From an uncultured delta proteobacterium (lineage in GTDB: Bacteria > Myxococcota_A > Polyangia > Polyangiales > Polyangiaceae), in contig CAWJCS010000005.1 of assembly GCA_963841435.1 (NCBI GenBank), positions 1,376,001 to 1,440,000 of the forward strand: a stretch of DNA of 64,000 bases, in the 5' to 3' direction. Below are positions 10,977 through 58,967 of the stretch, piece by piece. Every line of letters starts with the position of its first letter. Position 1 is the first letter of the stretch. Position numbers and translations under genes: made by a program. The notes under the pieces were generated by a model. The model worked only from the letters and a program-made list of their open reading frames with translations, was not told the DNA's origin and did not search any database.

Positions 10977-12554
10977 ATGACCGCCATTTCAGATCGAACG
11001 TCGCGGGGACGGGTGTCCTCGCTTGCGACGTGGGGCGTCGCAGGCGCGCTGTTGGTGGCGGAGTATCTGCTGATCTCCTTCCGGTTCGATGCCGCGACGG
11101 TGGTGCAGCGGGGCGGACTGTGGACGTTCGTGGGCTCGGTCGGCACGGTCGCCCCGCTCGCGGTCGTCGCGGCCACGGCGGTGCTCGTGCTCGGGGGCGC
11201 CCGCCCGGCTCCGGGTAGCGCCGCCACGGCCCCGCGCCGCAAGCTGCGCTACGGCCTACTCGCGGTCCACGCCGTTCTCTACGGCGCGTTCGTCGCCATC
11301 ACGAGCCTGGTTTTCGGCGCAGACGCGGCTCCCCCGGGCCCGCCGGCGCTTTGGCTCGGCGTGTGGGCGAGCGCGGGTGGCTCCTCGGCTATCGCGCTGC
11401 TGCTCGGCATCGTCGGCCCGGGTAAGCTGCGCTCGGTCGCATCAACGTCGCTGGTCGTCGCTCTCGGTGTCGGCTTCGCTGCGTGGCTCGCCGGCATGGC
11501 GACGACCGCTCTCTGGCAACCGCTCACGCACGCGACGCTCATGCTCGTCGTGGCGCTGCTCCGACCGTGGTTTCCGGAGGTGACGGTGGTTCCCGACGAC
11601 GCCGTGGTCGCGCTCCGCGACTTCACGGTCATCATCGAGCCCGCTTGCAGTGGACTCGAAGGAATCGGTCTCGTGCTCGTGTTGATGCTGGGGCTTCTCG
11701 TGGCGTTTCGTGCCGAGCTCCGCTTTCCGCACGCCCTGCTCTTGCCGCCGCTCGGCGTCCTCGGCGTGTGGCTCGCGAATGGCGCCCGGCTAGCGCTCCT
11801 GATCGCAATTGGAGCCTACTGGGACCCGCACGTCGCGCTCGGCGGCTTCCACTCCAAAGCCGGCTGGGTGTTCTTTTGCGCGATTGCGCTCGGCCTCGCG
11901 GTGCTCGCGCGCCGCTCGAAATACTTCGCGCGACGGCCGGAGGCCGTCGACGCGCCGACAGAGAATCCCACCGCGGCCTACCTGATGCCCGTGCTCGTCG
12001 TCATCGCCACGGGCCTCGTGACGGGCATGCTGACGAGCGGCGTCGACGAGCTCTACGGTCTCCGACTGCTCACGGCCGCCACCGCCCTTTTCGCCTATCG
12101 ACGCTACTATGCGGAGCTCGAGCGGCGCATCCACCCAGCGTCGCTCGCGGTCGGAGCCGCCGTCGGCGCGCTCTGGATCGTCACCGCGGTCCCGCCGGCA
12201 GTCGAGCCCGAGCCGGTCGGGTCGCTGTGGCTCGCCGCGCGGATCGCGGGGGCGGTATTGCTCGCTCCGGTGTGCGAAGAGCTCGCCTTTCGCGGCTACG
12301 CGTTGCGGCGCCTCGTCGCTTTGGATTTTTCGAGTGTTTCGTTTCGTGCCTGGTCGCCGCTGGCGGTCCTTGGCTCGTCGCTCGCCTTCGCGGCGCTGCA
12401 CGAGCGCTGGATGGCGGCCTTCCTGACCGGCATCGTCTACGCCGCCGTGCAGATCCGCTCCGGTCGCTTGCTGGACGCCATCGCGGCGCACGCGAGCTCG
12501 AACGCCGTCATCTGCGCTTGGGTCCTTTTTACTGGCGAGCGCTTTCACCTCTAG
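10977..12554 (+). CDS. Exosortase fused to a CAAX/CPBP intramembrane protease (exosortase E/protease type)
   Basis: Exosortase Cys/Arg/His in PACSGLEG, ANGARL and GGFHSKAGW; CPBP motifs PVCEELAFRG, FAALH and AHASSN. Confidence 0.9.
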   Translation: MTAISDRTSRGRVSSLATWGVAGALLVAEYLLISFRFDAATVVQRGGLWTFVGSVGTVAPLAVVAATAVLVLGGARPAPGSAATAPRRKLRYGLLAVHAVLYGAFVAITSLVFGADAAPPGPPALWLGVWASAGGSSAIALLLGIVGPGKLRSVASTSLVVALGVGFAAWLAGMATTALWQPLTHATLMLVVALLRPWFPEVTVVPDDAVVALRDFTVIIEPACSGLEGIGLVLVLMLGLLVAFRAELRFPHALLLPPLGVLGVWLANGARLALLIAIGAYWDPHVALGGFHSKAGWVFFCAIALGLAVLARRSKYFARRPEAVDAPTENPTAAYLMPVLVVIATGLVTGMLTSGVDELYGLRLLTAATALFAYRRYYAELERRIHPASLAVGAAVGALWIVTAVPPAVEPEPVGSLWLAARIAGAVLLAPVCEELAFRGYALRRLVALDFSSVSFRAWSPLAVLGSSLAFAALHERWMAAFLTGIVYAAVQIRSGRLLDAIAAHASSNAVICAWVLFTGERFHL

Positions 12555-12724: not shown

Positions 12725-13699
12725 GTGTTCTCGAAGAACGCTCTCCGCATCGACGCTCTCGCCGCCACGACCGCCATCGCAGAGACCGTTCGACGCCAGG
12801 TGATGGAAACGCTCCGCCGCCGGGGCGTCGTCGTCGGGCTCTCCGGTGGGATCGACAGCTCAGTGGTGGCAGCCCTGTGCGTGAAGGCCCTGGGGCGCGA
12901 GCGCGTGCTCGGCCTCTTCATGCCCGAGCGCGACAGCTCCGACGACGCGCTCAGTCTGGGGCGCCTGCTCGCCGAGTCCCTCGGCATCGAAACCGTGCTC
13001 GAGAACATCGGCCCCGGCCTCGCGGCCCTCGGCTGCTACGAGCGTCAGCTCGAGGCGATTCGCAGAGTGGTGCCGGAGTATGGCGACGGTTGGAAGTGCA
13101 AGCTCACGCTACCGACGGCCGCGGAAAAATCGCGATTCAGCGTCTTCCAGCTGGTCGTCGAAAGCCCGAGCGGCGAAACGCGCTCTTCGCGCATGCCGCA
13201 CGACGCATACCTCAAGCTCGTGGCGGCCACGAACTACAAGCAACGCGTGCGCAAGCTCACCGAGTACTATCACGCCGACCGCCTCGCCTACGCAGTCGCG
13301 GGCACGCCCAATCGCCTGGAGTACGATCAAGGCTTCTTCGTGAAGCAGGGTGACGGCGCGGCCGACGTGAAGCCCATCGCGCATCTTTACAAGACACAGG
13401 TCTACGCGCTCGCGGAGCATCTCGGCGTCCCCGAGGAGATCCGTCGCCGACCGCCGACCACGGACACGTTCTCCATGCCTCAGACGCAGGAGGAATTTTA
13501 CTTCTCGCTGCCCTACGACCAGATGGATCTCTGCCTCTACGCGTTGAACGAGGGGGTCCCTGCAGCCGAGGTTGCGCAGGCCATCGGGCTTGGCACGGCG
13601 CAGGTGGAGCGCGTGTTCGAGGACATCGAGCGCAAGCGCACCGCCACCCGCTACCTTCACGCGCGGCCACTCCTCGTGGAGCCCGTGTTCGAGAGCTGA
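12725..13699 (+). CDS. NH3-dependent NAD synthetase-like ATP pyrophosphatase (NadE-like, probably a pathway paralog)
   Basis: GTG after AAAGGA; GLSGGIDSS, GTPNRLEYDQGFFVKQGDG, KPIAHLYKTQVY. Confidence 0.85.
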   Translation: MFSKNALRIDALAATTAIAETVRRQVMETLRRRGVVVGLSGGIDSSVVAALCVKALGRERVLGLFMPERDSSDDALSLGRLLAESLGIETVLENIGPGLAALGCYERQLEAIRRVVPEYGDGWKCKLTLPTAAEKSRFSVFQLVVESPSGETRSSRMPHDAYLKLVAATNYKQRVRKLTEYYHADRLAYAVAGTPNRLEYDQGFFVKQGDGAADVKPIAHLYKTQVYALAEHLGVPEEIRRRPPTTDTFSMPQTQEEFYFSLPYDQMDLCLYALNEGVPAAEVAQAIGLGTAQVERVFEDIERKRTATRYLHARPLLVEPVFES

Positions 13700-13703
13700 C
13701 ACG

Positions 13704-15695
13704 ATGTGCGGCATAGCGGGCATTCTCGCGCGGGGCGGCCCGCCGCCGACCCGCGAGGCGCTCGGCAGGATGGCGCAGGCCATCACGCATCGAGGCCCCG
13801 ACGAGCTCGGGATGTACCGCGACGCCGAGATCGGGCTCGCTCACACGCGCCTGTCGATCATCGATCTCACGTCGGGGCAGCAACCGATGACGAACGAGGA
13901 TCACACCCTGTGGGTGGTCTTCAACGGCGAGATCTTCAACTACGTCGAGCTCAGGGCCGAGCTCGTGGAGCTCGGTCACACCTTCCGCACGCACAGTGAC
14001 ACGGAGGTCATCCTCCACGCCTTCGAAGCCTGGGGCGACGGCGCCTTTTCGCGCTTCAACGGGCAATTCGCAATCGCGCTCTGGAGCAGCACGACACGCA
14101 CGCTCACGCTCGCGCGCGACCGCGTCGGCGTGCGTCCGCTCTTCGTTTTGGAGCACGCCGGCCGCATCGTGTTCGCGAGCGAGGTGAAGGCCATCTTCGC
14201 GTCCGATCCGGAAATCCCTCGCGAGCTCGACCCCGTGGGCATCGACGAGACCTTCACGTTCTGGTCGGTGGTGGCGCCGCAATCCGTGTTCCGCGGTGTG
14301 ACGGAGCTGCCCCCGGGGCACCTTCGCAGCTACGCCGCATCGGGCGTCAGCGAGCGAGAGTACTACCGTCCGCGCTACCCGCGCCACGGCTCGGGCGCGT
14401 TCGCGGGCACGCTCGAGGACGCCGTGAGCGAGGTGCGCGCCGCACTCGAACGGGCGACGCGACTTCGCATGTTGCGCGCCGACGTGCCCGTGGGCTGTTA
14501 CCTGTCGGGCGGCCTCGACAGCTCGCTCGTGGCGGCGCTCGGGTTGCGCGCCAAGCCCGACGGGTTCAACACCTTTTCCCTCCGCTTCGAGGACCAAGAG
14601 TTCGACGAGACGCGCTTTCAGCGGCAAGTGAGCGAGGCGCTCGGCACTCAGCACCACGAGGTCGTGGTTTCGCAGAGGGACATCGCGAACGTGTTCCCCG
14701 CCGTCGTGGCTCATGCCGAGCGGCCGATCCTTCGCACCGGCCCCGCGCCGATGTTCCTCCTGTCGCAGCTGGTCCACGACAACGGTATCAAGGTCGTGCT
14801 CACGGGCGAAGGAGCCGACGAGATGTTCGCCGGCTACGACTTGTTTCGCGAGGCCAAGGTGCGCCGCTTCTGGGCTCGCCATCCCGAGAGCCAGCTCAGG
14901 CCTCGCCTGATCGAGCGGCTGTATCCGTACCTTTCGCGCTCGCCGGCGGCACAGAAGGCCATGGCGCGCGGCTTTTTCGGCCGAAACCTCGCGGCGCACG
15001 CCACCCCGGGCTTCTCGCACGATCCGCGCTGGCACTCGGCTTCGGCGCTCAAACGCCTGTTCTCGGCCGATCAGCGGGAGCGTGCGCGCGGCGTCAACGT
15101 GACGGCGCGCCTGCTCGCCGATCTGCCGGAGGACTACGCCGACTGGTCGTTGCTCGCGCGCGACCAGTACCTCGAAGTGCGGACGCTGCTACCGGGGTAC
15201 ATCCTGTCGTCCCAAGGCGATCGCATGCTGATGGCACATTCGATCGAGGGGCGGTTTCCCTTCCTCGACGCCGACGTGATGGAGCTCGCGAATGGCCTTC
15301 CGCCCGCGATGAAGCTCAAGGTGCTGGACGAAAAGCACGTGCTCAAGCGCGCCGGTGCCGACCTCTTGCCAGCCGAGGTTCTCGAGCGCAAAAAGCAACC
15401 ATACCGCGCGCCCGACGCAGCCTGCTTCACGCGCGCGGGCGCCCCCGAGTGGGTCGCGGAGACCCTGCGCCCCGAGCGTCTGCGAAAGGCGGGCGTGTTC
15501 GAGCCGGCCACTGTCGCGAGGCTCTACGAGAAATGTCGTGCGGCGGGCAACGCGCCCTTATCCAACGCCGACAACATGGCCCTGGTCGGCGTGCTGTCAA
15601 CCCAGCTGCTCTTCGACCTCACCGAACGCCCGCCTCCTCCGGCCCCCGACGCCGCGTGGAAAACGCTCATCGACCGGATGCAACCACCCGATTAA
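13704..15695 (+). CDS. Asparagine synthetase B-like glutamine amidotransferase
   Basis: MCGIAG, HRGPD, RLSIIDL, FNGEIFN, LSGGLDSS, LTGEGADE, EGRFPFLD. Confidence 0.93.
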   Translation: MCGIAGILARGGPPPTREALGRMAQAITHRGPDELGMYRDAEIGLAHTRLSIIDLTSGQQPMTNEDHTLWVVFNGEIFNYVELRAELVELGHTFRTHSDTEVILHAFEAWGDGAFSRFNGQFAIALWSSTTRTLTLARDRVGVRPLFVLEHAGRIVFASEVKAIFASDPEIPRELDPVGIDETFTFWSVVAPQSVFRGVTELPPGHLRSYAASGVSEREYYRPRYPRHGSGAFAGTLEDAVSEVRAALERATRLRMLRADVPVGCYLSGGLDSSLVAALGLRAKPDGFNTFSLRFEDQEFDETRFQRQVSEALGTQHHEVVVSQRDIANVFPAVVAHAERPILRTGPAPMFLLSQLVHDNGIKVVLTGEGADEMFAGYDLFREAKVRRFWARHPESQLRPRLIERLYPYLSRSPAAQKAMARGFFGRNLAAHATPGFSHDPRWHSASALKRLFSADQRERARGVNVTARLLADLPEDYADWSLLARDQYLEVRTLLPGYILSSQGDRMLMAHSIEGRFPFLDADVMELANGLPPAMKLKVLDEKHVLKRAGADLLPAEVLERKKQPYRAPDAACFTRAGAPEWVAETLRPERLRKAGVFEPATVARLYEKCRAAGNAPLSNADNMALVGVLSTQLLFDLTERPPPPAPDAAWKTLIDRMQPPD

Positions 15696-15708
15696 ACTCG
15701 TCGATCCC

Positions 15709-17259
15709 ATGCAAGCCGTCCCGCTCCTCCACGACTACCTCTCCGACGCCGCCGCGAGTCTCCCGGACAAGGTCGCGCTGGTCTGCCAGGGCCAGCGCCT
15801 GACCTACCAGGTGCTCGATGCCCGCGCGAACGCGCTCGCTCACGCGCTCGTCGCACGCGGCGTAACGCGTGGCGATCGCGTGCTCGTCTTCGCCGATAAC
15901 ACCATCGAGACGGTGATCGCGTTCTGGGCAGCGCTCAAGGCAAGCGCCGTCGCGTCGATCGTCAACCCGCTCACGAAGGAGGAAAAGCTCGCCTACCTCC
16001 TGAACGACTGCCGGGCGTCGGCGCTCGTCAGCGACGCCCACATCGCATCGGTGTTCGTGCCCGCGGCGCGCCGCAGCGAGCACCTAAAAACGGTCATCGT
16101 CTCGGGCTCGGTCAACGCCGCAGCGCTCGCCCCGCTCCCCCTCGCCGTCCACTGGGACGAGGCGATCGCGGGCAAGCCCACCACGGCGCCCGCGCGGCGC
16201 AACATCAACGTCAACCTGGCCGCCATCATCTACACCTCGGGCAGCACGGGGGACCCCAAGGGCGTGATGCTCACGCACCGAAACATGCTCACGGCCGCGA
16301 CGAGCATCTCCGCGTACCTCGAAAACCGCGAGGACGAGGTGATCCTCGGCGCTCTACCGCTGTCGTTCGACTACGGCCTTTACCAGATGATCATGGCCTT
16401 TCGCGCGGGCGCTCGCCTCGTGCTCGAAAGAAGCTTCACCTTCCCGGCAAAAGTACTGAAGCTCGTCGTCAACGAGGGTGTGACGGCATTTCCGGGTGTA
16501 CCGACGATGTTCGCCATCATGGCGAGCATGAAGACACTCAAGGACTTCGACTTCTCGAAGGTGCGCTACGTCACGAATACTGCGGCAGCGCTACCGGTCA
16601 AGCACGTGACGATGCTGCGCGACCTCTTCCCGGGAGCCCGCATCTACTCGATGTACGGCCTCACGGAGTGCAAGCGATGCACGTACCTCCCGCCAGCCGA
16701 CATCGAACGCAAGCCGACCAGCGTCGGTATCGCCATCCCGAACACGGAGCTCTGGCTCGTTGACGAGGACGACCGGAAGCTCGGCCCGAACCAGGTGGGC
16801 CAGCTCGTGATTCGCGGCGCCACGGTGATGAGAGGGTACTGGGAGAAGCCGGAAGCCACGCAAAAGAAGCTCAAGCCGGGGCCGCTGCCGGGCGAACAGG
16901 TGCTCTACACGGGGGATTTTTGTAAGCTCGACGAGGAGGGCTACCTCTATTTCGTCGGACGCATGGACGACATCATCAAGTCGCGCGGTGAAAAGGTGGC
17001 TCCCAAGGAGGTCGAGACCGCGCTCATGAACCTCCCGGGCATCAAGGAAGCCGCTGTCATCGGCGTCCCCGACGAGATTCTGGGGCAGGCGGTGAAGGCG
17101 TTCGTCGTGCTTTACGAGGGCGTCGAGATGTCCGAAAAAGACGTCGTGAGGGAGTGCCAGCGCATGCTCGAGAACTTCATGGTTCCCAAGGTCGTCGAGT
17201 TCCGCGCCGAGCTGCCGAAGACGAACACGGGCAAGATCAAGAAGACGGATCTATCGTGA
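15709..17259 (+). CDS. AMP-forming acyl-CoA/acyl-ACP ligase (ANL superfamily)
   Basis: YTSGSTGDPKGV, LPLSFDYG, MYGLTE, YTGD, GRMDDIIK, LPKTNTGKI. Confidence 0.93.
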   Translation: MQAVPLLHDYLSDAAASLPDKVALVCQGQRLTYQVLDARANALAHALVARGVTRGDRVLVFADNTIETVIAFWAALKASAVASIVNPLTKEEKLAYLLNDCRASALVSDAHIASVFVPAARRSEHLKTVIVSGSVNAAALAPLPLAVHWDEAIAGKPTTAPARRNINVNLAAIIYTSGSTGDPKGVMLTHRNMLTAATSISAYLENREDEVILGALPLSFDYGLYQMIMAFRAGARLVLERSFTFPAKVLKLVVNEGVTAFPGVPTMFAIMASMKTLKDFDFSKVRYVTNTAAALPVKHVTMLRDLFPGARIYSMYGLTECKRCTYLPPADIERKPTSVGIAIPNTELWLVDEDDRKLGPNQVGQLVIRGATVMRGYWEKPEATQKKLKPGPLPGEQVLYTGDFCKLDEEGYLYFVGRMDDIIKSRGEKVAPKEVETALMNLPGIKEAAVIGVPDEILGQAVKAFVVLYEGVEMSEKDVVRECQRMLENFMVPKVVEFRAELPKTNTGKIKKTDLS

Positions 17260-32799: not shown

Positions 32800-34185
32800 T
32801 CAATGCGAGCAGTCGTTCAGCTCGGGGACCGGAACGGCGCGGAACCAGAACAGCTTGGCGAGAATCGGGTTCGGGGGTTGACCGAGCAAGGGGTCGTCGC
32901 CTACGCGGGGCGCGACGTGCCGTACCCCGCGATATTCGTAGACGAGCTCGAGGTCGGGGCTGAAGGCCGCGAGCTGCTGCATCGCGAAGAAAGTGTACCG
33001 GGTCCCCTGGCGGCCCGACTCACTGAGGTCGTGGTCGCTCGACGAAACGATGCTCACGAGATCGTCCTGAAAATGGAACACGCGCATGGCGCGCGGCATG
33101 ACGAAGTGGTTCCAGAGCTCGCCCTCGGTCTGCACGTTGCTGAACATGGTGAAGCTCGATTCGGTCTTGAGTCCGAGGAAGGGGCAAAGGGCGTTGAGCG
33201 TCACCAAGATGGGCGTGATCCAGAGCCACCCGTTCATCGGCCTGAAACGCACGGGGGGCGCCACGAGCCGAGGCATCTTCAGCCACGCGAGCGCGACCAG
33301 CGTCACGAGACCGAGCGTGAAGGCGGCCCAGATGGCCTTGAAGAGAAGCAGGGTGAAGCGGCGGCGGAATGCGTCGTCCGGCACGACGAAGGGGAACACG
33401 CCGACCACGACGACGACCGCGGCGAGCACGATCGCCGCGCTGGCACGCCCCCGCGCGAGCCTCTGCACGAGGGCTACCACCCGACGGGACGCGCGCGAGC
33501 GAACGAGGACGTCACGCGCGCGCTCGACCAGCTCCGGCGGCGCGAACAGCGCATAGAGGGGGAGCAGCGACGCCGAGAAGTTGAAGAAGCCGTTGATGCC
33601 GAGAATCATATGGAAGAGCGTGCCCAAAATCAGCGTGATCGGGCGGGTCTTGCGCCAGAGCAGGGCGACCGGCAAGAGGCCCTCGACGACGAGCACCTGG
33701 TAGATCGAAAGCTCCCCTGCCCACGCTCCCTTCGGCAAAAACGGCAGCTTGTGCGCGAGCCAGTCGTACATCGTCCTCGAGCAGCTCACGTCGGGGTTGA
33801 AAAACCCTGCGTTGAGCTTCGCGAGCGTGACGCACACGTAGAGAATCACGAGATGCACGCGCAGCGTGGGTGCGAAGGTCTCGAACCAGTGCTCGCCGTC
33901 CAACTTCGCGCCACCCCGGCCGACGAGGCAGAGCGCCGCGATCAGGATCGTCAGGTCGCCGAAGCTGAGCAGCCACCAATGGTTCGTCTCGAACGGCAGG
34001 TGATACGCGAACGTCGCCAGCTGCACGCCGGCGAGCAGCACCGCGCTGCTCGGCAGCGGTCGAAGCAGCATCCAGAGCGCGGCGAGGTCGAGCGCGATGT
34101 CAACCGAAATGCCCGCGAAGTGCCCCGCCCGACCCTGGTGGATCAGGATCGCGAACGCCCAGAGAAACGTGAAGAGACGAAACAT
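32800..34185 (-). CDS. HTTM-like polytopic membrane protein
   Basis: NHWW, AKLNAGFFNPDVSC, VVEG, FHMILG...FNFS, FTMFSN pattern; many TM helices. Confidence 0.6.
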   Translation of the reverse strand: MFRLFTFLWAFAILIHQGRAGHFAGISVDIALDLAALWMLLRPLPSSAVLLAGVQLATFAYHLPFETNHWWLLSFGDLTILIAALCLVGRGGAKLDGEHWFETFAPTLRVHLVILYVCVTLAKLNAGFFNPDVSCSRTMYDWLAHKLPFLPKGAWAGELSIYQVLVVEGLLPVALLWRKTRPITLILGTLFHMILGINGFFNFSASLLPLYALFAPPELVERARDVLVRSRASRRVVALVQRLARGRASAAIVLAAVVVVVGVFPFVVPDDAFRRRFTLLLFKAIWAAFTLGLVTLVALAWLKMPRLVAPPVRFRPMNGWLWITPILVTLNALCPFLGLKTESSFTMFSNVQTEGELWNHFVMPRAMRVFHFQDDLVSIVSSSDHDLSESGRQGTRYTFFAMQQLAAFSPDLELVYEYRGVRHVAPRVGDDPLLGQPPNPILAKLFWFRAVPVPELNDCSH

Positions 34186-34318
34186 CCGTGTGGCGAGAAG
34201 CAGCGCTCGTACCGCAGACCGTCCCGCGCCTCAAGTGCGGACGACGGCGATCGCGGCGCAAAATCCGTCTCGCGTGCGCGGCACCGCGCATGAAGTGCGC
34301 GGCCGTTGGCTTTGCCCT

Positions 34319-35869
34319 ATGCTCGGCCGCCCCGTGCTCGGACAAACGACTTCGACAGCGCCGCCAGCCAGCGACAGGACGAGCAAGCACAAGCTGACCA
34401 GGGATCTCAAGCGCGGATCCTTCTGGGTGCTCGCCGGCTACGGGGGCGGGCAGGCCCTTCGCCTCGGCAGCAACCTGGTGTTGTGGCGACTGCTCTACCC
34501 CGAAGCGTTCGGTCTGATGGCGCTCGTGAACACGTTCCTACAGGGGCTGCACATGTTCTCGGACGTCGGAATCGGCCCGAGCATCGTCCAGAGCCCACGA
34601 GGTGACGAGCCCGAGTACCTGAACACGGCCTGGACCATTCAGGTGGCACGAAGTCTCGTGCTTTTCACGATCGCCTGCGTCGCAGCCCGCGCCGTGGCGC
34701 ATTTCTACGACGCTCCCCCGCTCGCCACGCTCATCCCGCTGGTCGCGCTGGTGACCATCATCTCCGGGTTCAATTCCACACGCCTCGTGACGGCGAAGCG
34801 CCACGTGGCGCTGGGCCGCGCAACGGCCATCGATCTGATCTCGCAGGCATCGGGCATCGCCATCGTGATCCCATGGGCGTACGTCACCCGCGACGTGATG
34901 GCGTTCGCCGTCGGCGCCGTCGCGTCGGCGATCGTCAAGCTCGCTCTGAGCCACACCTTCCTACCGGGCGTGCAGAATCGCTTCACCTGGGATCGACCGA
35001 GCGCACACGCCCTGCTCCGCTTCGGGCGCTGGGTCTTTCTGAGCACGCTCTTGACGTTCGCGGTGCTGCAGTCGGACCGACTGATCTTCGGCAAGCTCGT
35101 CTCGCTCCAGACGCTCGGGGTCTACAGCATCGCCACGGTGTGGGCGACGATCCCCGTCACGGTCGTCTCGCAGGTCGCAAGCTCCGTGATCTTTCCCTTG
35201 CTCAGCCGCGTGCACAACGCCAGAGGCGACTTCGCCGGCGCGCTCAAGCAGACGCGCACGACCTGGCTCGTACTGGCGGGCTGGATGGTGGCGTGCCTCG
35301 GAGCAACCGGGCCGACGCTCATCAGGTTCCTCTACGACCAGCGGGCCAAGGACGCCGGATGGATTCTCCAGTTTCTCTCCGTCGGGACCTGGTTCGCGAG
35401 CCTCGAGATGCCCAACCGAATGGCGCTCCTGGCGCGCGGCCGTCCACTGTGGATGTCCGTGGACAGCAGTGCCAAGCTCGTGGCCATGGTGGCCCTGATT
35501 CCGACCGGCTACCTCCAATTCGGGTTTCCGGGCGCGGTCGCGGGGTTCGCGGGCGCAGAGCTGTTTTCCTATCTCGCCTCGCTCGTCGGGCTCGCGCGTG
35601 CAGGCGTCTCTGGGCTGCTGGTCAACGCGTCGCTTTCCGCCCTGGTGCTCGCAACGACCGTCGCGGGCGATTTCTTGCGCTGGCCGGTGCGACAGCTGGT
35701 CCAGCGCGTGGGCCTGCCCTACCGGGCGACCGCCTTCGTCGAGGGGATGCTGCTCGTGCTCGCCATCTCGAGCGTCTGGGCTGCCGCCTACTTCGGCTAC
35801 CGGCGCTTCTCACGCACACCGACCTCGAGCCCGACGACGGCGTCCTTCCCCCCTTCGGTGAGCCCCTGA
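34319..35869 (+). CDS. wzx: Wzx oligosaccharide flippase
   Basis: RLLYPEAFGLMA, FSDVGIG, NTAWTIQ, SDRLIFGKL...LGVYSIA, FPLLSR. Confidence 0.88.
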   Translation: MLGRPVLGQTTSTAPPASDRTSKHKLTRDLKRGSFWVLAGYGGGQALRLGSNLVLWRLLYPEAFGLMALVNTFLQGLHMFSDVGIGPSIVQSPRGDEPEYLNTAWTIQVARSLVLFTIACVAARAVAHFYDAPPLATLIPLVALVTIISGFNSTRLVTAKRHVALGRATAIDLISQASGIAIVIPWAYVTRDVMAFAVGAVASAIVKLALSHTFLPGVQNRFTWDRPSAHALLRFGRWVFLSTLLTFAVLQSDRLIFGKLVSLQTLGVYSIATVWATIPVTVVSQVASSVIFPLLSRVHNARGDFAGALKQTRTTWLVLAGWMVACLGATGPTLIRFLYDQRAKDAGWILQFLSVGTWFASLEMPNRMALLARGRPLWMSVDSSAKLVAMVALIPTGYLQFGFPGAVAGFAGAELFSYLASLVGLARAGVSGLLVNASLSALVLATTVAGDFLRWPVRQLVQRVGLPYRATAFVEGMLLVLAISSVWAAAYFGYRRFSRTPTSSPTTASFPPSVSP

Positions 35870-39151: not shown

Positions 39152-39811
39152 CTACTCGACGACGATCGCATCGCCGTCACGCAGCCGGAACCGCACGCTC
39201 GCGGCCTCGGCAGCGACCAGGTCCGAGTAGCGAAAGCGCACGCGAGGGCTGGACCTGTCGTGTCGAATCACGAAAATCGAGTCCTCGTCGGCAAATGTGC
39301 TGAGCCCGCCCGCCCTCGCGAGCACGTCGAGCACGCCCTCGTCACCGGTCAACGCGTACCTGCCGGCCGTCTTCACCTCCCCGAGCACGCTCACGGTCGG
39401 AGGGGGGCGCACGGCGATGAGGATCGTGACACGGGGGTCGGCGAGCACGCCCCGCAGCCGGTTCGTGACTTCGGCCGCCAGCGCGTCCGCGGTCCTGCCG
39501 GCGGTATTGAAACGTCCAGCGGTCGGCAAGACGACTTCGCCGCCCGGTCGCACGTCGAACTCGCCCGACATCTCCAACTGATTCGCGACCACCACCTGCA
39601 GCTTGTCACCGGGGAGGATCACCTTGTCTTCGTTGGGATCCGGGGGCGGCAGCTGACTGGCCCAGACGTAGGTGCGTGACGTGCCGCAAGCGAGCGCGAG
39701 ACCCGCCGCGAGAACGAGCGATGAGCGCCGCGTCACGCGCGATGGGGCGGCATGCGCGGCGCCACGGACGGCGACTCCACGCGGCACGTTGCGGGAGCGA
39801 TGCGTTGTCAT
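39152..39811 (-). CDS. Short OPX (Wza-like) polysaccharide export lipoprotein
   Basis: Lipobox LALAC; ILPGDKLQV, VRPGGEVVLP, VSVLGEV..AG.Y, AGGLS.FAD; ends LRDGDAIVVE. Confidence 0.9.
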   Translation of the reverse strand: MTTHRSRNVPRGVAVRGAAHAAPSRVTRRSSLVLAAGLALACGTSRTYVWASQLPPPDPNEDKVILPGDKLQVVVANQLEMSGEFDVRPGGEVVLPTAGRFNTAGRTADALAAEVTNRLRGVLADPRVTILIAVRPPPTVSVLGEVKTAGRYALTGDEGVLDVLARAGGLSTFADEDSIFVIRHDRSSPRVRFRYSDLVAAEAASVRFRLRDGDAIVVE

Positions 39812-39945
39812 TCGGAGACCACAGTGCTACCGGGAAAATCGCCGCGCCGCATCCCGCAACGCGAGCCCGACGCGGCTCGCACGATACCATACGAGCGCGC
39901 TCGGCAATCCCGAACCACCGCCGCCCCGCCGAGTCCGCACGGCCC

Positions 39946-52945: not shown

Positions 52946-54589
52946 TCAGCTATTGGCGACGGAGAGCACCACGCCGAGGCGCTCCCCGGAAAAGGGCGCC
53001 AACGTTCGCGCCGACTCAGGCACGTTTTGTGGGTACGCGGCCACGACGCCATCCACCACGTCGCTCACGGCTCGGCACGCGACGTCTTCGGACAACGGGG
53101 GAGCGTTGACGATGATCACGTCGTAGTAAGGGCGCAGGGCAGCAACGCAATCTTCGAAGTGTGTCGAGAGGATCAGCTCGGGCGCCGTACGCGCCGACGG
53201 CAAGACGTGCAATGCCGGCGAGCACTTGAGAACGTACCAGTGCCCGTCGGCCGAACCGTCCACGCGGGCGGATAGCTGGGTTGCGAAGTCCGTTGCGGGC
53301 AGCACCACCAAGCCCAGCGCCGTCCCGAGACTGGGCTTGGCGAGATCCGCCTCGACGAGGAGCACTCTCGATGAATCGTCCTCGGCGAACGCGGCCGCGA
53401 GGCCCGCGCTGATTTCAGCCTTGGCCGCCGCGACAGCCGGCGTTGCCGTGACCCCGACCACGAAGCAATCCCCTTGAGCTAGGGCGCGCAGCTGCTCGCG
53501 GAGGGCATAGTACCGCTGCCGCCCGGGCACCGCCTCGGGACGCCAGGGCGTCGGGTAGGCCATCACGGGCGATTCGCCGGGAGGCGGCCCGCTCCCCGGT
53601 GCCCCGCTCGAGGGTCGAGCTTCGGCGCGTGGCGGCGGCGGCCCCGAGTCGAGCTCCGGGGAAGGCGGCACGGCGGGCTCGCCACCGGCCAGTCCGTCCA
53701 CGCTCAGCACCTGCGGCGCCTCCGCGACAGAAGACGGCGACAACGAGGGACTCGGCGGGGGCCGCGAGACCGCCGTGCCGGCACGTCGTGGCTCGAGCGA
53801 CGCTCGCCTGCGCGAAGCCGAGCGCTCGGCCCGCGGCGAACCCGCTGGCAAGAGCGCCACGATGAGCGAAAGCGCCAGCCCGATGCCGTAGAGCAGGGAG
53901 CGCTGCGGCTCGGACGGCGGCTGCTGCAGGCGGGCCTCGATGACCGGAGGCGTCGTCGGCTTGGTCGCGGATGGGGCCGCGGACGGCGGCGGCAACGCTT
54001 CGATGAGCTTCTGCAACTCGGGGAGCCCCGTCGTCGTCACCCCCTGGCGCGCGCGAGCCACCGATGCGAGGGAGCTGTCGATCTCGGCCAGCCGCCGCTT
54101 GAGCACGAGCGCCCGCGAGGGACGTGCCCGCTCGGAGTCGGCGAACGGATTGTCCGAGCCGGACGCGTCGCCACCACCTGGCCTCAGCCCATCGAGCTCG
54201 GCCTGGACGCGTTGGCGTTCCTGCTCGAGCACGACGCGATCGGTCGACGCGCTCTTCTGCGCGGGCTCGGCGGAGCGCGCGAGGTCCGGATGGCTCACGA
54301 GGTAGCTCACGAGCTGATCCTCGGCCTCCGCGGCGGGCGCGGGCTCGGCAGCCCGCGGGGCCGCGAGCGCCTCTGCACGCACGAAAGTGCGCTGGGCCGC
54401 GGCTCTGCACAGCTCCTCGGCGCGCGCCGCCGTGCGGTCCCGTCCGACGATGGGCACGCCATCGCCGCCCACGAGTGGAACGACCGCGCGCGCTGCGAAG
54501 ATTTGCGGCGACGTTTGGGCGAACGCGGCGAAAGCGCCGAAGGCGACCACCGCCCTGAGCACCCGCACGGCGACCCCCGCAGCCGTCAC
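52946..54589 (-). CDS. Wzc-like membrane protein with a degenerate BY-kinase-like C-terminal domain
   Basis: Two hydrophobic segments flank a coiled region, then a Pro/Ser linker, then FVVGVTATPAVAAAKAE, VLLVEADL..P, LHVLP, YDVIIV(N)APP. Confidence 0.75.
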   Translation of the reverse strand: MTAAGVAVRVLRAVVAFGAFAAFAQTSPQIFAARAVVPLVGGDGVPIVGRDRTAARAEELCRAAAQRTFVRAEALAAPRAAEPAPAAEAEDQLVSYLVSHPDLARSAEPAQKSASTDRVVLEQERQRVQAELDGLRPGGGDASGSDNPFADSERARPSRALVLKRRLAEIDSSLASVARARQGVTTTGLPELQKLIEALPPPSAAPSATKPTTPPVIEARLQQPPSEPQRSLLYGIGLALSLIVALLPAGSPRAERSASRRRASLEPRRAGTAVSRPPPSPSLSPSSVAEAPQVLSVDGLAGGEPAVPPSPELDSGPPPPRAEARPSSGAPGSGPPPGESPVMAYPTPWRPEAVPGRQRYYALREQLRALAQGDCFVVGVTATPAVAAAKAEISAGLAAAFAEDDSSRVLLVEADLAKPSLGTALGLVVLPATDFATQLSARVDGSADGHWYVLKCSPALHVLPSARTAPELILSTHFEDCVAALRPYYDVIIVNAPPLSEDVACRAVSDVVDGVVAAYPQNVPESARTLAPFSGERLGVVLSVANS

Positions 54590-56436
54590 GTTCCTGTCCC
54601 GCCCAGCACCACGGGCACCGTGCGCGCGAGGACGTAGAGGTCGAGCCAGGGCGACCAGTTGCGCACGTACTCAACGTCCATCTGCAGGCGCTGCTCGAAG
54701 GTGGATTCGTTGCGCCACGTCACCTGCCAGATGCCGGTGATGCCCGGCTTGACGCGCAAGATGATGGCTTCCTTCTGCTCCATGTCCGGGATCTCACGCT
54801 CGAGATACGGGCGCGGTCCGACGAGGCTCATCTCCCCGACCAGCACGTTCCAAAGCTGGGGCAGCTCGTCGAGGCTGTATTTGCGGAGAAAACGGCCGAT
54901 GCGCGTGACGCGAGGATCGTTGTTCAGCTTGTGAAACTGCTCGTATTCGACGGCGAGCATGGGATCGCGCTCGAGGATGCCGGCGAGGCGCTGCTCCGCA
55001 TCCTCGAACATGGTGCGGAATTTGAGCGCCGCGAAGCGGATCCCGTCCTGTCCGAGCCGCTTCTGCCGGTGAAACACCGGGCCCTTGGAGTCCAGCCGGA
55101 TCACGAACGCGAGGAGCATGAGGAGCGGCCACGTGATCAACAGCCCGATACTGGTAAGCGCCAGATCCATGGCGCGCTTGGCCGCCCGCGGACCGCGCAA
55201 CAAGAGCTGGCGCTGCACTTCGATGCCAAGCGCACCGCCGAGATAGCGCGTCGGCGCGCCGAAGTGCGTCAGGTTGAACAGGTCCGGAATGACCAGCACG
55301 TTGTGGTAGCTGTCCGCGAAACGCTCGATCACGCCGAGCATCGTGGACGCGTCCATTTCGGGCATGGCGAGCACGGCCGTCCGCACCTTGAGCCGCTGCG
55401 ACAGCGCGGGGGCAAGCTCCAGCCCGCCCACGATCGGAACGCCCTCGACCTCCGAGAACTGCTCGAGCGCGGATCGCTCGGACGGTGATTCCGCGTCCTC
55501 GGCATCGAACTCGCGGACGGGCTCGATCACGATGTCGTTTTCGCCCCAGGTGGCGCGCACCGTGCCCTGGCGCGCCGGATTGTCGTCGAGGATCGCGACG
55601 GGCTTCAGACCAAGCTGCGGACGCGCCTGCAGCATGGTGACGACCGCGCGCCCCACCTTGCCGGCGCCCATCACCACCACGGGCTGACCCCACCAGGGAG
55701 TGCGCGCCAGCGACGAGCGCAGAATGCCGCGCAACGTCGGCACGAGCACGATGGCGATCAACCACCCAATCGCCCAAGCCTCGTGGGAGACCGCGTAGAA
55801 CGAGACGACGCGCGTCAGCACGACGGCCATCCAGCAGCCGGCGTAGACGAGCGTGATCGAAGCCACCGAGCTGCGGATCTCGTCCGGCGGGCTCGGTGGC
55901 GTGACCGCGTACAGGCGAGACGCCGAGAACGCGGCCAGGCACAGGGGAACCACGGCGGCCAGGACGTAGATGGCGGCGTTCGACAGTCGATCGTGTGCGA
56001 CCAAGAACCAGAGCACGGCGGTGCCGAGCCCGAGCGACACGAGGTCGGACAGGACGAGCACGAGGCTGACGAGCCTTGGGCGGCAGCTCACCTGCAGCCA
56101 GCCAATCGACGGGTTCTCGCGAGCGCGCCGCGCGATGCTGCGGGCCTTGCCGCGAACGCGCGCGGTGTGCACTTGCTCGATCAGCGCTTCGGCGACGGCT
56201 CTCGCGTCGCACGCGCCGAGCCGACGCAGGATGGCGCCGATGTGCCCGCCGTTCTCGGCCTGGACGTGCAGCGCGTGACGGAGCTGTTCGGGCGTGATGA
56301 CACCCTTCCGGAGCAGCACCTGCCCGAGCTCGTTGTCTCGCCTCCGCCGACGGCGGTAAAAGGCGGGACTACTGTCCCTCGACTCCCGGGGCGCGTCGGG
56401 GGGCTGCACGAGCGCCGATGCCCGCCGCTTGCTCAC
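54586..56436 (-). CDS. Initiating polyprenyl-phosphate phosphoglycosyltransferase (WbaP/WcaJ-like) with an N-terminal MshEN-like extension
   Basis: [57 protein letters not shown]. Confidence 0.93.
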
Positions 56437-56672
56437 GCAACGTCGAGACGGCCAACCCAGCTCGTCTTGGCCCCCTGGATGGCCGCGCGCGCGATAGCGA
56501 GCATGAGCCCCTCGTCGATACCCTGAACCTCGACAGAAACGGGGGGGACGCTGCGAAAGGTTCCAACCTTCACGTCGTCGAGTAGCCGGACCACCTCGTA
56601 GTGCCCCTCCGCAAGGCGCACCACGCGGTACGTCGTGCCGGCAACTTGAACCATACCCTTAACGACGCGCAT
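56433..56672 (-). CDS. Small hypothetical protein (79 aa), first gene of the PGT operon
   Basis: Ordinary globular composition unlike the shadow ORFs; its stop overlaps the PGT start (GTGA). Confidence 0.65.
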   Translation of the reverse strand: MRVVKGMVQVAGTTYRVVRLAEGHYEVVRLLDDVKVGTFRSVPPVSVEVQGIDEGLMLAIARAAIQGAKTSWVGRLDVA

Positions 56673-56911: not shown

Positions 56912-58967
56912 ATGAGCCCCGCCCCGCCCCCACCGAGCTTCATGAAGTCGCTGCTCCGGGCAGTCGCCGCGGGTGCGGTCGTGTTCGCGGGCTTTCTTGG
57001 CTACGGCTACAGGGATCCTCCCGTTTTCGAGACGGGGGGCGAGCTCCGCGTCAGCGGTGCCCTGCCGAGCGAGGGGATGAATGCCGTCGTTGACCGGCTC
57101 GAGCGGACCATTTTCGATTCCGCGTTGCTTTCCCGCCTAGCGGCGGAAGCAGGCCCGCAGAGCGGGCAGGTCGCGGGGCTCAGGGTCGCGAGCGGCATCC
57201 GCTTCGAGCCTCGTCCGCCGGACCGAGTTCGCATCGTCTGCCGCAACCCCGACCCCGAGCGCCTCAAGTTCCTGTGCGACGCCGTCCTCACGGCCGTCAC
57301 CAAACGGGGCGCTGTGGCCGTCGCCGGAACCCAGTCGTCCTCCACGGCGCTCACCTCGAGCGTCGCCGATTCTGGCCGCCTACGCGCGCGCGCACCCGGA
57401 GCTCTTCCTGAGCGCCCGAAAGCCCCCGCCAAAGCCGGAATCCCTGGAGGAGCTGCGCCAAAAGACGGATGCCGTGCGCTCGGCGCGAGCGTCCAGCGTC
57501 CCGACGATCCCGACGCTGTCGTTCGAGGTGGCGATCCCAGTGGGCGGCGCCAAACCGCTCGGGGTGCCGCGCTCTGCCGTGCTGTTTGCGGGATTGTTCG
57601 GGGCGCTCGCGACGGCCTTCATCACCCTCATGGGCGAGTTCTTCCTGCTCCGGCGAGCTCAGGCGGCCGCGGCTCGCGAGAGCTTCTTGCTCGACGACGA
57701 GGACGACGAGCTCTCGAAGCCTTTTGCGCTCGCCCCCGCCCCGGAAACACAGCCGCCCCTCGCACTGCCACCCCGTTCAGTCCCGCCGCCGGCGGCGGCT
57801 GCCACTCCGGCCTCCGCGCCTCCTCCCGACACGTCAGACCCGCAGGTCGAATTCTCGGTCCCCCCGCCTGGCGTGACGGAGCCGACTTCTTCGGCGCCGC
57901 CGGGCGCCCCGCCCCGACCCGGCTCCTCGGCGCCGCCCGGCGCGCTCGCATCACCGATTCTACGCCGCGCACCAACCACGCCCGTCGTCGCCGTGCCGCC
58001 CGGCGGCGGGTCGTTCGTGCCACCATCCGCGCCGCCGGTCCCGGCCGTTGCCCCCACGGCAAGTGGCGAAAGTCCGGCTGAGGGACCCTCGACGATGCTT
58101 CCGCCGGCCAAGTCGAGCGACTCGGGTTTCCACGCCACGGTGACGTACGACGCGACCAACCTCGATGCGCGCCACCGAGAGCGCGGGGTACCCGTCACGC
58201 GCACCACGCAAATGCTCGGCTCACCGCTCTCGCCCGAGGCTCAACCCGTTTCGCGACCCTCCGGGCGAGTCCGCCAGGGCTCCGCCACGACTCGCTACAG
58301 CTTCGTGAGCACGCCACCACCAGCCGGGGGCGAGCCGGTGCGACCGCACGACGTGGGTCCGGATTGGAGCCCCGATCCGAGCATCGATCCCGCACCTTGC
58401 AGGCCGCTTTGTCGCGAGCTCTTCGCCTTCGGTGTCGAGCACTGTTTTGTGGTGGGCGTGACGGCGGTGCCCGGCCTCGATCGAGACAAGGCCGAGTTTT
58501 CCGCCGCGCTCGCGCTCGCGCTGTCCGCGACCGGTCACGCGCGCGTGTTGCTCGTCGAGGGTGACCTCGATGCCCCGCAACAACACACGTTCATGCGCGC
58601 CGAGATGCCCGAGGGGGAGAGCTTCTCGCGCCAGCTACAGGCGCACATGACGCGTCAGGCGGGCGAGCATTGGAGCGTGCTGCGCTGCACGAAGTCGCTG
58701 CACGTGCTCGTGGACGGCGAGGAGCACACGCCGGGGCTCATCCTCTCCCGCACGTTCGAGGAGTGCGTGCGGGCGCTCCGCGCGTACTACGACTTCATCG
58801 TGCTCGACGGTCCGACGGGCGCACGGGAATCGGAGTGCCGCGCGCTCGACGGCGTCATCGACGGGCTCATCGTGGTGTGCACCGAGGAAACACGAGCCAC
58901 CATCCCCGAAACGTCGCGCTACTTCACCACGAAGCGATTTTCCAAGGCGATCCGCGCAACGCGCTGA
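56912..58967 (+). CDS. Second Wzc-like membrane protein with a degenerate BY-kinase-like domain; apparent frameshift at ~57370
   Basis: TM1 in ORF 56912; removing one T at GATTC restores LAAYARAHPEL (paralog has LVSYLVSHPDL) and joins ORF 57474 with TM2, Pro-rich linker, FVVGVTAVPGLDRDKAE, VLLVEGDL, YDFIVLDGP. Confidence 0.75.

Follow-up and report, generated by a model that had tools for sequence, protein, structure and literature searches.

The 64,000-nucleotide stretch of DNA analysed here (the window; positions 1,376,001 to 1,440,000 of contig CAWJCS010000005.1, assembly GCA_963841435.1) comes from an uncultured member of the Polyangiaceae and carries a gene for a large monotopic phosphoglycosyltransferase (PGT) of the WbaP type with what is almost certainly an MshEN_N domain at its N-terminus (54586..56436, - strand, stop codon included; GTG start at 56436; 616 amino acids). 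Enzymes of the WbaP type place the first sugar-1-phosphate on undecaprenyl phosphate. A first-pass annotation, made without database searches, had noticed in this protein a tandem motif of the kind that binds cyclic di-GMP (c-di-GMP) in the MshE and PilB ATPases and proposed that the first committed step of glycan synthesis may be gated directly by this messenger.

The tandem motif forms the core of the domain and occupies PGT residues 36-88 (56173..56331; this and all following PGT features lie on the - strand). It consists of two 24-residue units, unit I at residues 36-59 (56260..56331) and unit II at residues 65-88 (56173..56244), joined by the 5-residue spacer AENGG (residues 60-64; 56245..56259), in which G63 and G64 are invariant among 50 aligned sequences. 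Both the coordinates and the 24 + 5 + 24 layout given at first pass proved exact, the codon of E36 beginning at 56331 and that of Q88 ending at 56173 when translation is counted from the GTG at 56436. The leading arginine of the consensus is indeed replaced in both units, by E36 in unit I and by H65 in unit II, and a run of six arginines (R28-R33; 56338..56355) does stand just upstream, directly before D34-N35-E36.

The earlier assignment of the protein to the WbaP-type initiating enzymes is upheld by the NCBIfam hidden Markov model (HMM) TIGR03022 (WbaP), which matches the 616-aa protein at 444.5 bits against a cut-off of 403; TIGR03025 scores 362 bits against 295.55. A sugar specificity for the putative transfer of Gal-1-P (or another sugar-1-phosphate) to undecaprenyl phosphate is suggested only by the best HMM, that of the WbaP subfamily. 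In Pfam, Bac_transf (PF02397) covers residues 420-611 (E = 6.2e-66, profile positions 1-178 of 179) and CoA_binding_3 (PF13727) residues 199-384 (27 bits against a cut-off of 25), with weak Rossmann-type matches at residues 253-302. Four hydrophobic segments in a Kyte-Doolittle scan (about residues 120-147, 150-178, 189-212 and 220-244; 55705..56079) are read as the four-helix membrane bundle of the large monotopic PGTs (Lg-PGTs). They are followed by the cytoplasmic domain of unknown function (DUF; the CoA_binding_3 / PF13727 region, about residues 245-420; 55177..55704) and by a putative re-entrant helix (about residues 422-450), seen in the hydropathy scan as a fifth segment before the catalytic domain. 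Helix and Bac_transf catalytic domain (420-611) together span 54604..55179, with PRP at 541 and, at 523, DELPQ, which we take to be the site of the catalytic Asp-Glu dyad. This order fits the Lg-PGT plan of WbaP, in which a four-helix membrane bundle leads to the PF13727 DUF and then to the catalytic domain (PMC10942596).

Between the tandem motif and the membrane lies a basic linker (residues 89-119; 56080..56172) with a conserved ARENPS..GL.V.CRP segment that runs into the first membrane helix. In the alignments P120 is invariant and R119 is present in at least 90 % of the sequences, and the predicted helices around the linker (78-99 and 101-107) are of moderate confidence. From the four putative membrane helices, the cytoplasmic location of the catalytic and DUF domains, and the strongly basic composition of the N-terminus (25 Lys + Arg against 11 Asp + Glu in residues 1-120), we infer that the N-terminus lies on the cytoplasmic side.

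Identity and distribution of the N-terminal domain

The MshEN-type assignment made at first pass is supported by a curated HMM, by the predicted fold, and by the conservation of the ligand-contact positions. NF053729, a 53-position NCBIfam model named 'c-di-GMP_motif, MshE-related' with a curated cut-off of 38 bits, aligns with PGT residues 37-88 over profile positions 2-53 of 53 (E = 2.3e-13, 49.7 bits) and reaches 52.9 bits on the isolated N-terminus. In a six-frame scan of the 7.78-Mb genome, the PGT motif ranks third among 13 matches to this model, 6 of which exceed the cut-off; its match is far beyond chance. A phmmer search against the PDB sequences retrieved PilF (E = 3.7e-14, over several repeats), PilF GSPII-B (9e-4), Myxococcus xanthus PilB (0.005) and MshE (0.019).

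The Pfam MshEN/T2SSE_N model (PF05157), with which the first-pass annotation had proposed to check its claim, returned nothing at E up to 10, either for the whole PGT or for its first 121 residues, where the sole Pfam match is a weak one to DUF4388 (E = 0.0037). This blank is a false refutation because PF05157 starts downstream of the motif: in the PilB of this genome and in a 410-aa MshEN protein the match begins only after the tandem motif, and the model is described as missing the first three helices and the binding site (Wang et al. 2016 supplement, PMC5013675), whereas NF053729 does match. No T2SSE_N1 subdomain was found after the PGT motif (PF05157, E up to 10), and a 31-residue basic linker and then the membrane helices follow instead, which places the PGT module in the MshEN_N-only class, like EpsG and Bd2402.

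An AlphaFold2 (AF2) model of residues 1-125, built on an alignment that combines the window fragment with five genome loci and with 44 of the 61 homologues described below, has a predicted local distance difference test (pLDDT) score of 89-95 over residues 41-90 and contains four helices (25-44, 49-62, 66-73 and 78-99). The first 13 rows of a Foldseek search with this model are all MshEN-type N-domains (12 from MshE or PilF, the 13th XpsE-N), most of the crystal-structure rows showing a root-mean-square deviation (rmsd) of 0.5-0.7 Å over 52-54 columns at 28-44 % identity; the E-values of the MshEN-type rows are only 0.03-1.9, which we attribute to the shortness of the domain. VIA-align gave Z 8.7 and an rmsd of 2.1-2.4 Å over 57-59 residues with c-di-GMP-bound MshE and PilF GSPII-B; its first 11 rows all have the MshEN fold at Z 6.8-8.7, and the next row, an unrelated structure, drops to Z 4.5. 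Since Z below about 13 can be common among helical bundles, the fold assignment is based on the HMM together with this clean separation of rows and not on Z alone. The matches from both programs include 5HTL, 8PDK, 8PFA and 9GL5, and the module is predicted to be a four-helix bundle that superposes on ligand-bound MshE and PilF GSPII-B. We regard the identity of residues 36-88 as an MshEN_N domain as nearly certain.

A word-indexed search with PGT residues 1-130 retrieved 61 clusters, all of 523-651 aa and all with PF02397, one of them named as a Polyangiaceae metagenome-assembled genome (MAG), and a scan of genome contigs added five Polyangiaceae MAG loci at 61-75 % identity. Within the window's family, 102 of 383 genomes carry the N-terminus (matches at E up to 1e-10); they belong to 17 of the 89 genera, and 36 of them come from the window's own genus, which has 46 genomes. 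A 125-aa N-terminal query matched 6 of 401 phylum-sampled genomes, all in the window's family, and the MshEN_N-PGT fusion was not found in the other families of that sample. Bac_transf is likewise present in five distant members (34-42 % identity); NF053729 matches all 50 aligned family rows, and WbaP models match all 49 full-length rows. Judging from these sequences, the MshEN_N-PGT fusion is a family. Of the remaining 32 loci of the contig scan, those with a readable frame at the match (all but L031, L038 and L043-L045) encode proteins of about 300 aa or 566-724 aa that, by length and motif context, are judged not to be PGTs.

A wider search, in which 11 N-terminal fragments were made into a profile and run against 1.84 billion representatives, yielded 9797 matches at E up to 0.001, of which a Pfam scan took in 49 of the best 150. 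Among these 49, all five single-stretch matches of at least 600 aa are Bac_transf proteins, and none of the 20 multi-stretch matches is, these being T2SSE ATPases, glycosyltransferases of family 2 (GT2), REC proteins and others. No independent MshEN-PGT fusion outside the window's family appeared among the 49 scanned, a design hardly able to find one.

Some homologues (P0223, 1081 aa; P0204, 969 aa; L017-L019) have putative additional parts. In one representative the MshEN_N-PGT is joined, according to the gene call, to a C-terminal Ser/Thr protein kinase domain, and others have about 220-290 putative extra residues, or an open frame, before the MshEN_N module.

The deposited gene call (P0008, a 577-aa product) begins at the GTG codon of V40 (56317..56319), which drops ELGQ from unit I, and the homologue P0061 begins at the same position. 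Were translation to start at V40 or later, the motif segment would fall outside the protein and be a chance reading of a 5' leader, a concern that the first-pass annotation had itself raised. Several observations place the start upstream of the motif, and we rejected V40. Only these 2 of the 61 homologues are called from that position, and 58 are called through the tandem motif. In comparisons with five related loci, synonymous differences number 15-23 and non-synonymous ones 9-15 across the 53 codons of the motif; for the 12 codons that precede it, the counts are 5-8 and 0-4, respectively. Differences rich in synonymous changes thus extend across the motif and beyond its upstream edge. Furthermore, a 79-aa gene (56433..56672, - strand) ends right at the GTG at 56436, its stop overlapping the PGT start (GTGA), and in all five related loci its end is no more than a few bases away from where the PGT begins. 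With the HMM match to the translated segment as a further argument, a chance reading of a leader is extremely improbable. The frame is open upstream to 56658 with no ATG, GTG or TTG above the GTG at 56436, and a second in-frame GTG occurs at V10. Gene calls from V40 and the Pfam MshEN model thus both hide the MshEN_N module.

Conservation of the ligand site

In MshE, guanine is bound at O6/N7, on its Hoogsteen edge, by the main-chain NH groups of residues 3 and 4 of the units, Leu2 of one unit clusters with Leu17 and Leu21 of the other on a base, Gln24 binds the ribose-phosphate, which is the sole role of its side chain in the solved complexes, and Arg1 only stacks on a base (PMC5013675). Both units of the PGT carry the corresponding residues, with a hydrophobic side chain at positions 2, 17 and 21, Gly at position 3 and Gln at position 24. 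Read in sequence order, these five positions are L, G, L, L, Q for unit I; unit II has I, G, V, L, Q. Conservation was followed in an alignment of the window fragment, 44 homologues and five genome loci (alignment A1, 50 sequences), and in a close family of 44 sequences. Throughout alignment A1, Gln24 is present in both units of all 50 sequences, Gly3 in 50 of 50 for unit II and 46 of 50 for unit I, positions 17 and 21 are hydrophobic in every sequence, and L21 of unit II is kept in 49. In the close family E36, G38, Q39, L52, L56, Q59, G67, L85 and Q88 are invariant.

These patterns bear on an alternative in which the MshEN_N fold was kept and c-di-GMP binding lost, as in XpsE-N and PilF GSPII-A, the module now having a docking or structural role in the PGT. 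Positions that serve the ligand only should then relax, yet both Gln24 residues and Gly3 of unit II are kept without exception, and the HMM score is well above the cut-off. The known non-binders lost exactly these residues. Eight changes in XpsE count as loss of binding, among them G11V, L29R, G40L, L54H, L58C and Q61V (PMC5013675), and the non-binding GSPII-A has H33, A41, I55, I59 and R62 (PMC12002112); of the eight XpsE changes, the PGT has only the non-Arg residue at position 1 of unit II.

Position 1 calls for closer attention. It is E in unit I of 45 of the 50 sequences, and in unit II it is H in 40, Q in 8 and L in 2. This position is the least constrained one among proven binders: changes of Arg9 shift the affinity less than five-fold (PMC5013675), and GSPII-B, with Lys and Leu at position 1, binds at 6 nM, so that the consensus was extended to R/K/L (PMC11731258). 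An arginine at this position is not needed. Moreover, R29, R30 and R33 of the arginine run are invariant in the close family, and it is plausible from the sequences that the run makes up for the non-Arg position 1; it is absent from a distant clade (L015-L019), where position 1 is Leu, Tyr or Met.

Several features of the module nonetheless weigh against c-di-GMP binding and in favour of docking. E36 and H65 lie outside both the tested R/K/L set and the [RKPN] set of the relaxed motif of Wang et al. 2016 ([RKPN]hGxxhhxx[GAS]hhxxxxhxxxhxx[QNKRYWST]; 11 constrained positions), and a carboxylate beside the ligand phosphates could be unfavourable. Unit I agrees with this motif at 10 of the 11 constrained positions, the sole failure being E at position 1, whereas unit II agrees at 8, failing at positions 1 (H), 7 (R) and 12 (C). 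The description of the second unit as degenerate at first pass is therefore fair, but the departures are conserved in the family and not drifting; C at position 12 is found in all 50 sequences. Additionally, of the 26 wider-family representatives (50 % identity) that have the region, 14 carry Cys at position 3 of unit I and 12 carry Gly, so that half of the wider family departs at the guanine-contacting position where G11V of XpsE counts as a loss change. Four of the five distant loci have Cys there as well; unit II keeps its Gly at position 3, and the window protein has Gly in unit I. GSPII-A with a restored consensus still does not bind, because the site is blocked by inter-subdomain contacts and by helix 1, which is capped and stabilised in an N-terminally extended form (PMC12002112), and the presence of the motif alone is therefore insufficient for binding. 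In this connection, AF2 draws helix 1 of the PGT from residue 25 through the arginine run (pLDDT 54-76), a possible N-terminal extension. Weighed against the conservation of the ligand-only positions, we consider the loss of binding unlikely, although it is the strongest competitor of c-di-GMP binding.

A further alternative is that the module binds a related nucleotide, such as 3',3'-cyclic GMP-AMP (3',3'-cGAMP), which myxobacteria also make, with Glu and His tuning the specificity. 3',3'-cGAMP is reported from M. xanthus, and the conserved E36 and H65 set the PGT apart from every binder tested so far. The MshEN domain of V. cholerae MshE (VcMshEN) does bind cGAMP, albeit more weakly, but MshEN owes its guanine specificity to main-chain NH contacts at positions 3 and 4 in both units (PMC5013675). 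Given that Gly3 is kept in both units of the PGT and that the syntenic cyclase described below has an ordinary GGEEF site, we regard this alternative as quite improbable.

Genes around the phosphoglycosyltransferase

The 79-aa gene that overlaps the PGT start has 289 homologue clusters, all called hypothetical, and its product matched no Pfam or NCBIfam family. It stands directly upstream of the PGT in all five close loci and is present twice in L022 and L023; no homologue was found in the 1.5-kb flanks of the five distant PGT loci. The AF2 model of the 79-aa protein (pLDDT 84) has five strands and one helix and no clear fold match in the PDB (best Foldseek E = 0.19). Prediction of a complex between this protein and the full PGT gave a score of 0.34 (runs of 0.29, 0.34 and 0.35), against 0.00 for the best of three controls; the runs agree in at least 60 % of the contacts, and the pLDDT of the partner is at least 67. 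The mark applied in this procedure is reached by 116 of 157 solved complexes and by 2 of 215 mismatched pairs, and the passing scores of 0.60 or less comprise only 18 of the 157 solved complexes and both of the passing mismatches. The prediction thus gives weak support to binding of the 79-aa protein to the PGT. The conservation of this co-transcribed gene in the five close loci and the weak complex score make the protein a candidate partner for a docking role of the MshEN_N module, along with the two flanking proteins described next and the DUF dimer of the PGT itself.

The PGT gene is flanked by two paralogues that resemble bacterial tyrosine kinases (BY-kinases), encoding a 547-aa protein (52946-54589, - strand) and a 497-aa protein (57474-58967, + strand). 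Their C-terminal parts are of sub-threshold BY-kinase/MinD type, with TIGR03018 scores of 35.9 bits (E = 4.5e-9) and 28.5 bits (E = 8.8e-7) against a cut-off of 230.65, and the P-loop region reads VTATPAVAAAKAE, with no Walker A motif. By their sequences, the two proteins may be pseudo-kinases of the polysaccharide co-polymerase type. NF053729 has no match in either of them at E up to 1.

The domain scan of the rest of the window points to a polysaccharide locus. One gene (10977-12554, + strand) joins an exosortase-like EpsH domain to an Rce1/CAAX-protease-like domain; an asparagine synthase and an AMP-dependent ligase follow (together 13548-17259, + strand), a set typical of exosortase/PEP-CTERM polysaccharide loci. 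The window also codes for GT2, GT4 and WecG glycosyltransferases, a deacetylase, DegT and a hexapeptide acyltransferase, for SIS, GHMP-kinase and nucleotidyl-transferase proteins resembling a heptose pathway, for a Polysacc_synt_3 flippase-like protein (34004-35869), and for a Wza-like protein (39152-39826). On this gene content, the PGT belongs to an exopolysaccharide locus that contains Wzx and is associated with an exosortase. The gene at 7670-10114 (+ strand) encodes a Ser/Thr protein kinase whose N-terminal domain is DUF4388 (PATAN-type); DUF4388 proteins elsewhere in the genome (L004, L005 and L006) carry NF053729 matches above the cut-off.

The genome contains 17 GGDEF matches. One of them is a REC-GGDEF diguanylate cyclase of 316 aa with GGEEF and an RSMD I-site, encoded 6.7 kb past the window end (G000:C5:1446727-1447665, or L057:6727-7674, + strand) and thus 14.3 kb upstream of the window's PGT, in divergent orientation. 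It adjoins a sigma-54 activator with an FHA-type domain (L057:2817-4649, - strand) and RmlA/RmlB-like genes. Orthologues at 77-100 % identity occur in 8 of the 383 family genomes, the window's own included, and in 6 of these 8 the cyclase lies on the PGT contig, 4.2-14.3 kb upstream and divergent; among five genomes its identity is 81-93 %, and it is more conserved than the PGT. This arrangement is confined to the window's subclade, and the six syntenic genomes are so closely related that they amount to hardly more than a single event. Synteny with a cyclase as a general rule was rejected: none of five other genomes of the same genus has a GGDEF gene within 20 kb of the PGT, the nearest being 22, 33, 46 or 305 kb away or off the contig.

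Possible c-di-GMP gating and comparison with known systems

Taking sequence, model and analogy together, we lean towards the interpretation that the MshEN_N module binds c-di-GMP and gates the activity of the PGT, which we regard as moderately probable. The cytoplasmic N-terminus of the PGT would have acquired a stand-alone MshEN_N, a 53-residue four-helix bundle without T2SSE_N1, that would bind one c-di-GMP as MshE and PilF GSPII-B do. In such a complex, the Hoogsteen edges of the guanines would be contacted by the main-chain NH groups of G38/Q39 and G67/A68, base stacking would come from the clusters L37 + V81/L85 and I66 + L52/L56 and ribose-phosphate binding from Q59 and Q88, and E36 and H65, perhaps with the arginine run, would stand in for the capping arginines. 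The first turn of helix 1 might re-form around the ligand, as it does in GSPII-B (PMC11731258). This change would move the arginine run and the basic linker near the membrane bundle and the DUF dimer, alter the active dimeric state of the PGT, and raise its activity, so that undecaprenyl phosphate would be committed to polysaccharide only at high c-di-GMP. Activation as the direction of the effect is assumed by analogy with NfrB and with the action of EpsW~P on EpsZ.

The fuller proposal, that this is the first c-di-GMP-gated PGT, with a Glu/His-capped MshEN_N acting in cis, the REC-GGDEF protein of the locus as the source of the messenger, a translationally coupled 79-aa partner, and the first committed step as the one switched, is tentative, and we would place it somewhat short of probable. 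A receptor module on an initiating PGT would let the messenger act where scarce undecaprenyl phosphate is committed, and the biofilm signal c-di-GMP may thus switch the slime synthesis of a soil myxobacterium at its very first step. The conserved Glu/His capping positions would also widen the recognition rules of MshEN, so far limited to R, K and L. The system would be compact and open to testing, because the 53-residue domain can be produced alone.

Post-translational control by c-di-GMP is established for synthase-dependent systems, namely cellulose, alginate, Pel, PNAG and NfrB. According to the 2025 EpsZ/EpsW study, c-di-GMP control is known for synthase-dependent pathways, whereas the post-translational control of Wzx/Wzy-dependent pathways is incompletely understood (PMC12802240); if the proposed gating is true, a local second-messenger circuit would operate where Wzx/Wzy post-translational control is least understood. 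The MshEN architectures listed by Wang et al. 2016 comprise T2SSE, GT2, REC, HD-GYP, Pkinase, AAA_31 (EpsG), CheX, Peptidase_M23, cyclase, CheA and TrxB, and a Bac_transf enzyme does not appear in their table (PMC5013675). In the PNAS 2024 survey of monotopic PGTs (monoPGTs), c-di-GMP, fusion and regulatory domain do not occur. The literature searched contained no MshEN on a PGT, although O'Toole et al. 2021 or the architecture tables of InterPro may list the fusion; MshEN and Wzx came up together only in work on NfrB. O'Toole et al. 2021 is said to give a monoPGT similarity network and to list fused 'Bi-PGTs'. Domain databases very likely display the fusion, since NF053729 detects MshEN_N automatically.

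The PGT module shares its 53-residue tandem motif and four-helix bundle with MshE of Vibrio cholerae (5HTL) and PilF GSPII-B of Thermus thermophilus (8PDK), as well as Gly3, the Leu clusters and the terminal Gln in both units. In those proteins the domain is accompanied by T2SSE_N1 on type IV pilus or type II secretion system (T2SS) ATPases, whereas the PGT has MshEN_N only, on a membrane enzyme, and position 1 is Arg/Arg or Lys/Leu there and Glu/His here. On the enzyme side, WbaP of Salmonella enterica and EpsZ of M. xanthus are of the same class as the PGT and have the same order of membrane bundle, PF13727 DUF and catalytic domain. Both lack an N-terminal sensor: WbaP is regulated by uridine monophosphate (UMP) through its DUF, and EpsZ is regulated in trans by a phosphorylated receiver, being a myxobacterial Lg-PGT switched post-translationally by the signalling protein EpsW~P (PMC12802240), whereas the module of the window's PGT would act in cis.

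Direct action of c-di-GMP on an early enzyme of a lipid-carrier polysaccharide pathway has a precedent in HfsJ (PMC11481889), the c-di-GMP-binding holdfast glycosyltransferase of Caulobacter crescentus, which acts after the PGT and has no reported MshEN motif. The EpsG protein of Methylobacillus (TIGR03029) carries MshEN_N on an AAA_31/BY-kinase-like ATPase (Wang et al. 2016 supplement, PMC5013675) and, like the PGT, has an MshEN_N-only module; its exopolysaccharide locus is of the exosortase/PEP-CTERM type, and the window likewise holds an exosortase-like gene. The N-terminal part of TIGR03029 matches PGT residues 34-92 weakly. The module of EpsG, however, sits on a chain-length/kinase component and not on the initiating PGT.

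NfrB of Escherichia coli is, like the PGT, an inner-membrane polysaccharide enzyme fused to MshEN, and NfrB models give weak matches to PGT residues 31-94. Binding of c-di-GMP to its MshEN domain activates the glycosyltransferase domain of this GT2 enzyme (PMC10118264). NfrB is a processive GT2 synthase with a C-terminal sensor, whereas the window encodes a PGT that would prime a Wzx-type pathway and carries the module at its N-terminus. For NfrB the cyclase DgcJ is named as the source of c-di-GMP; in the window's subclade, a cyclase gene shares the locus of the PGT.

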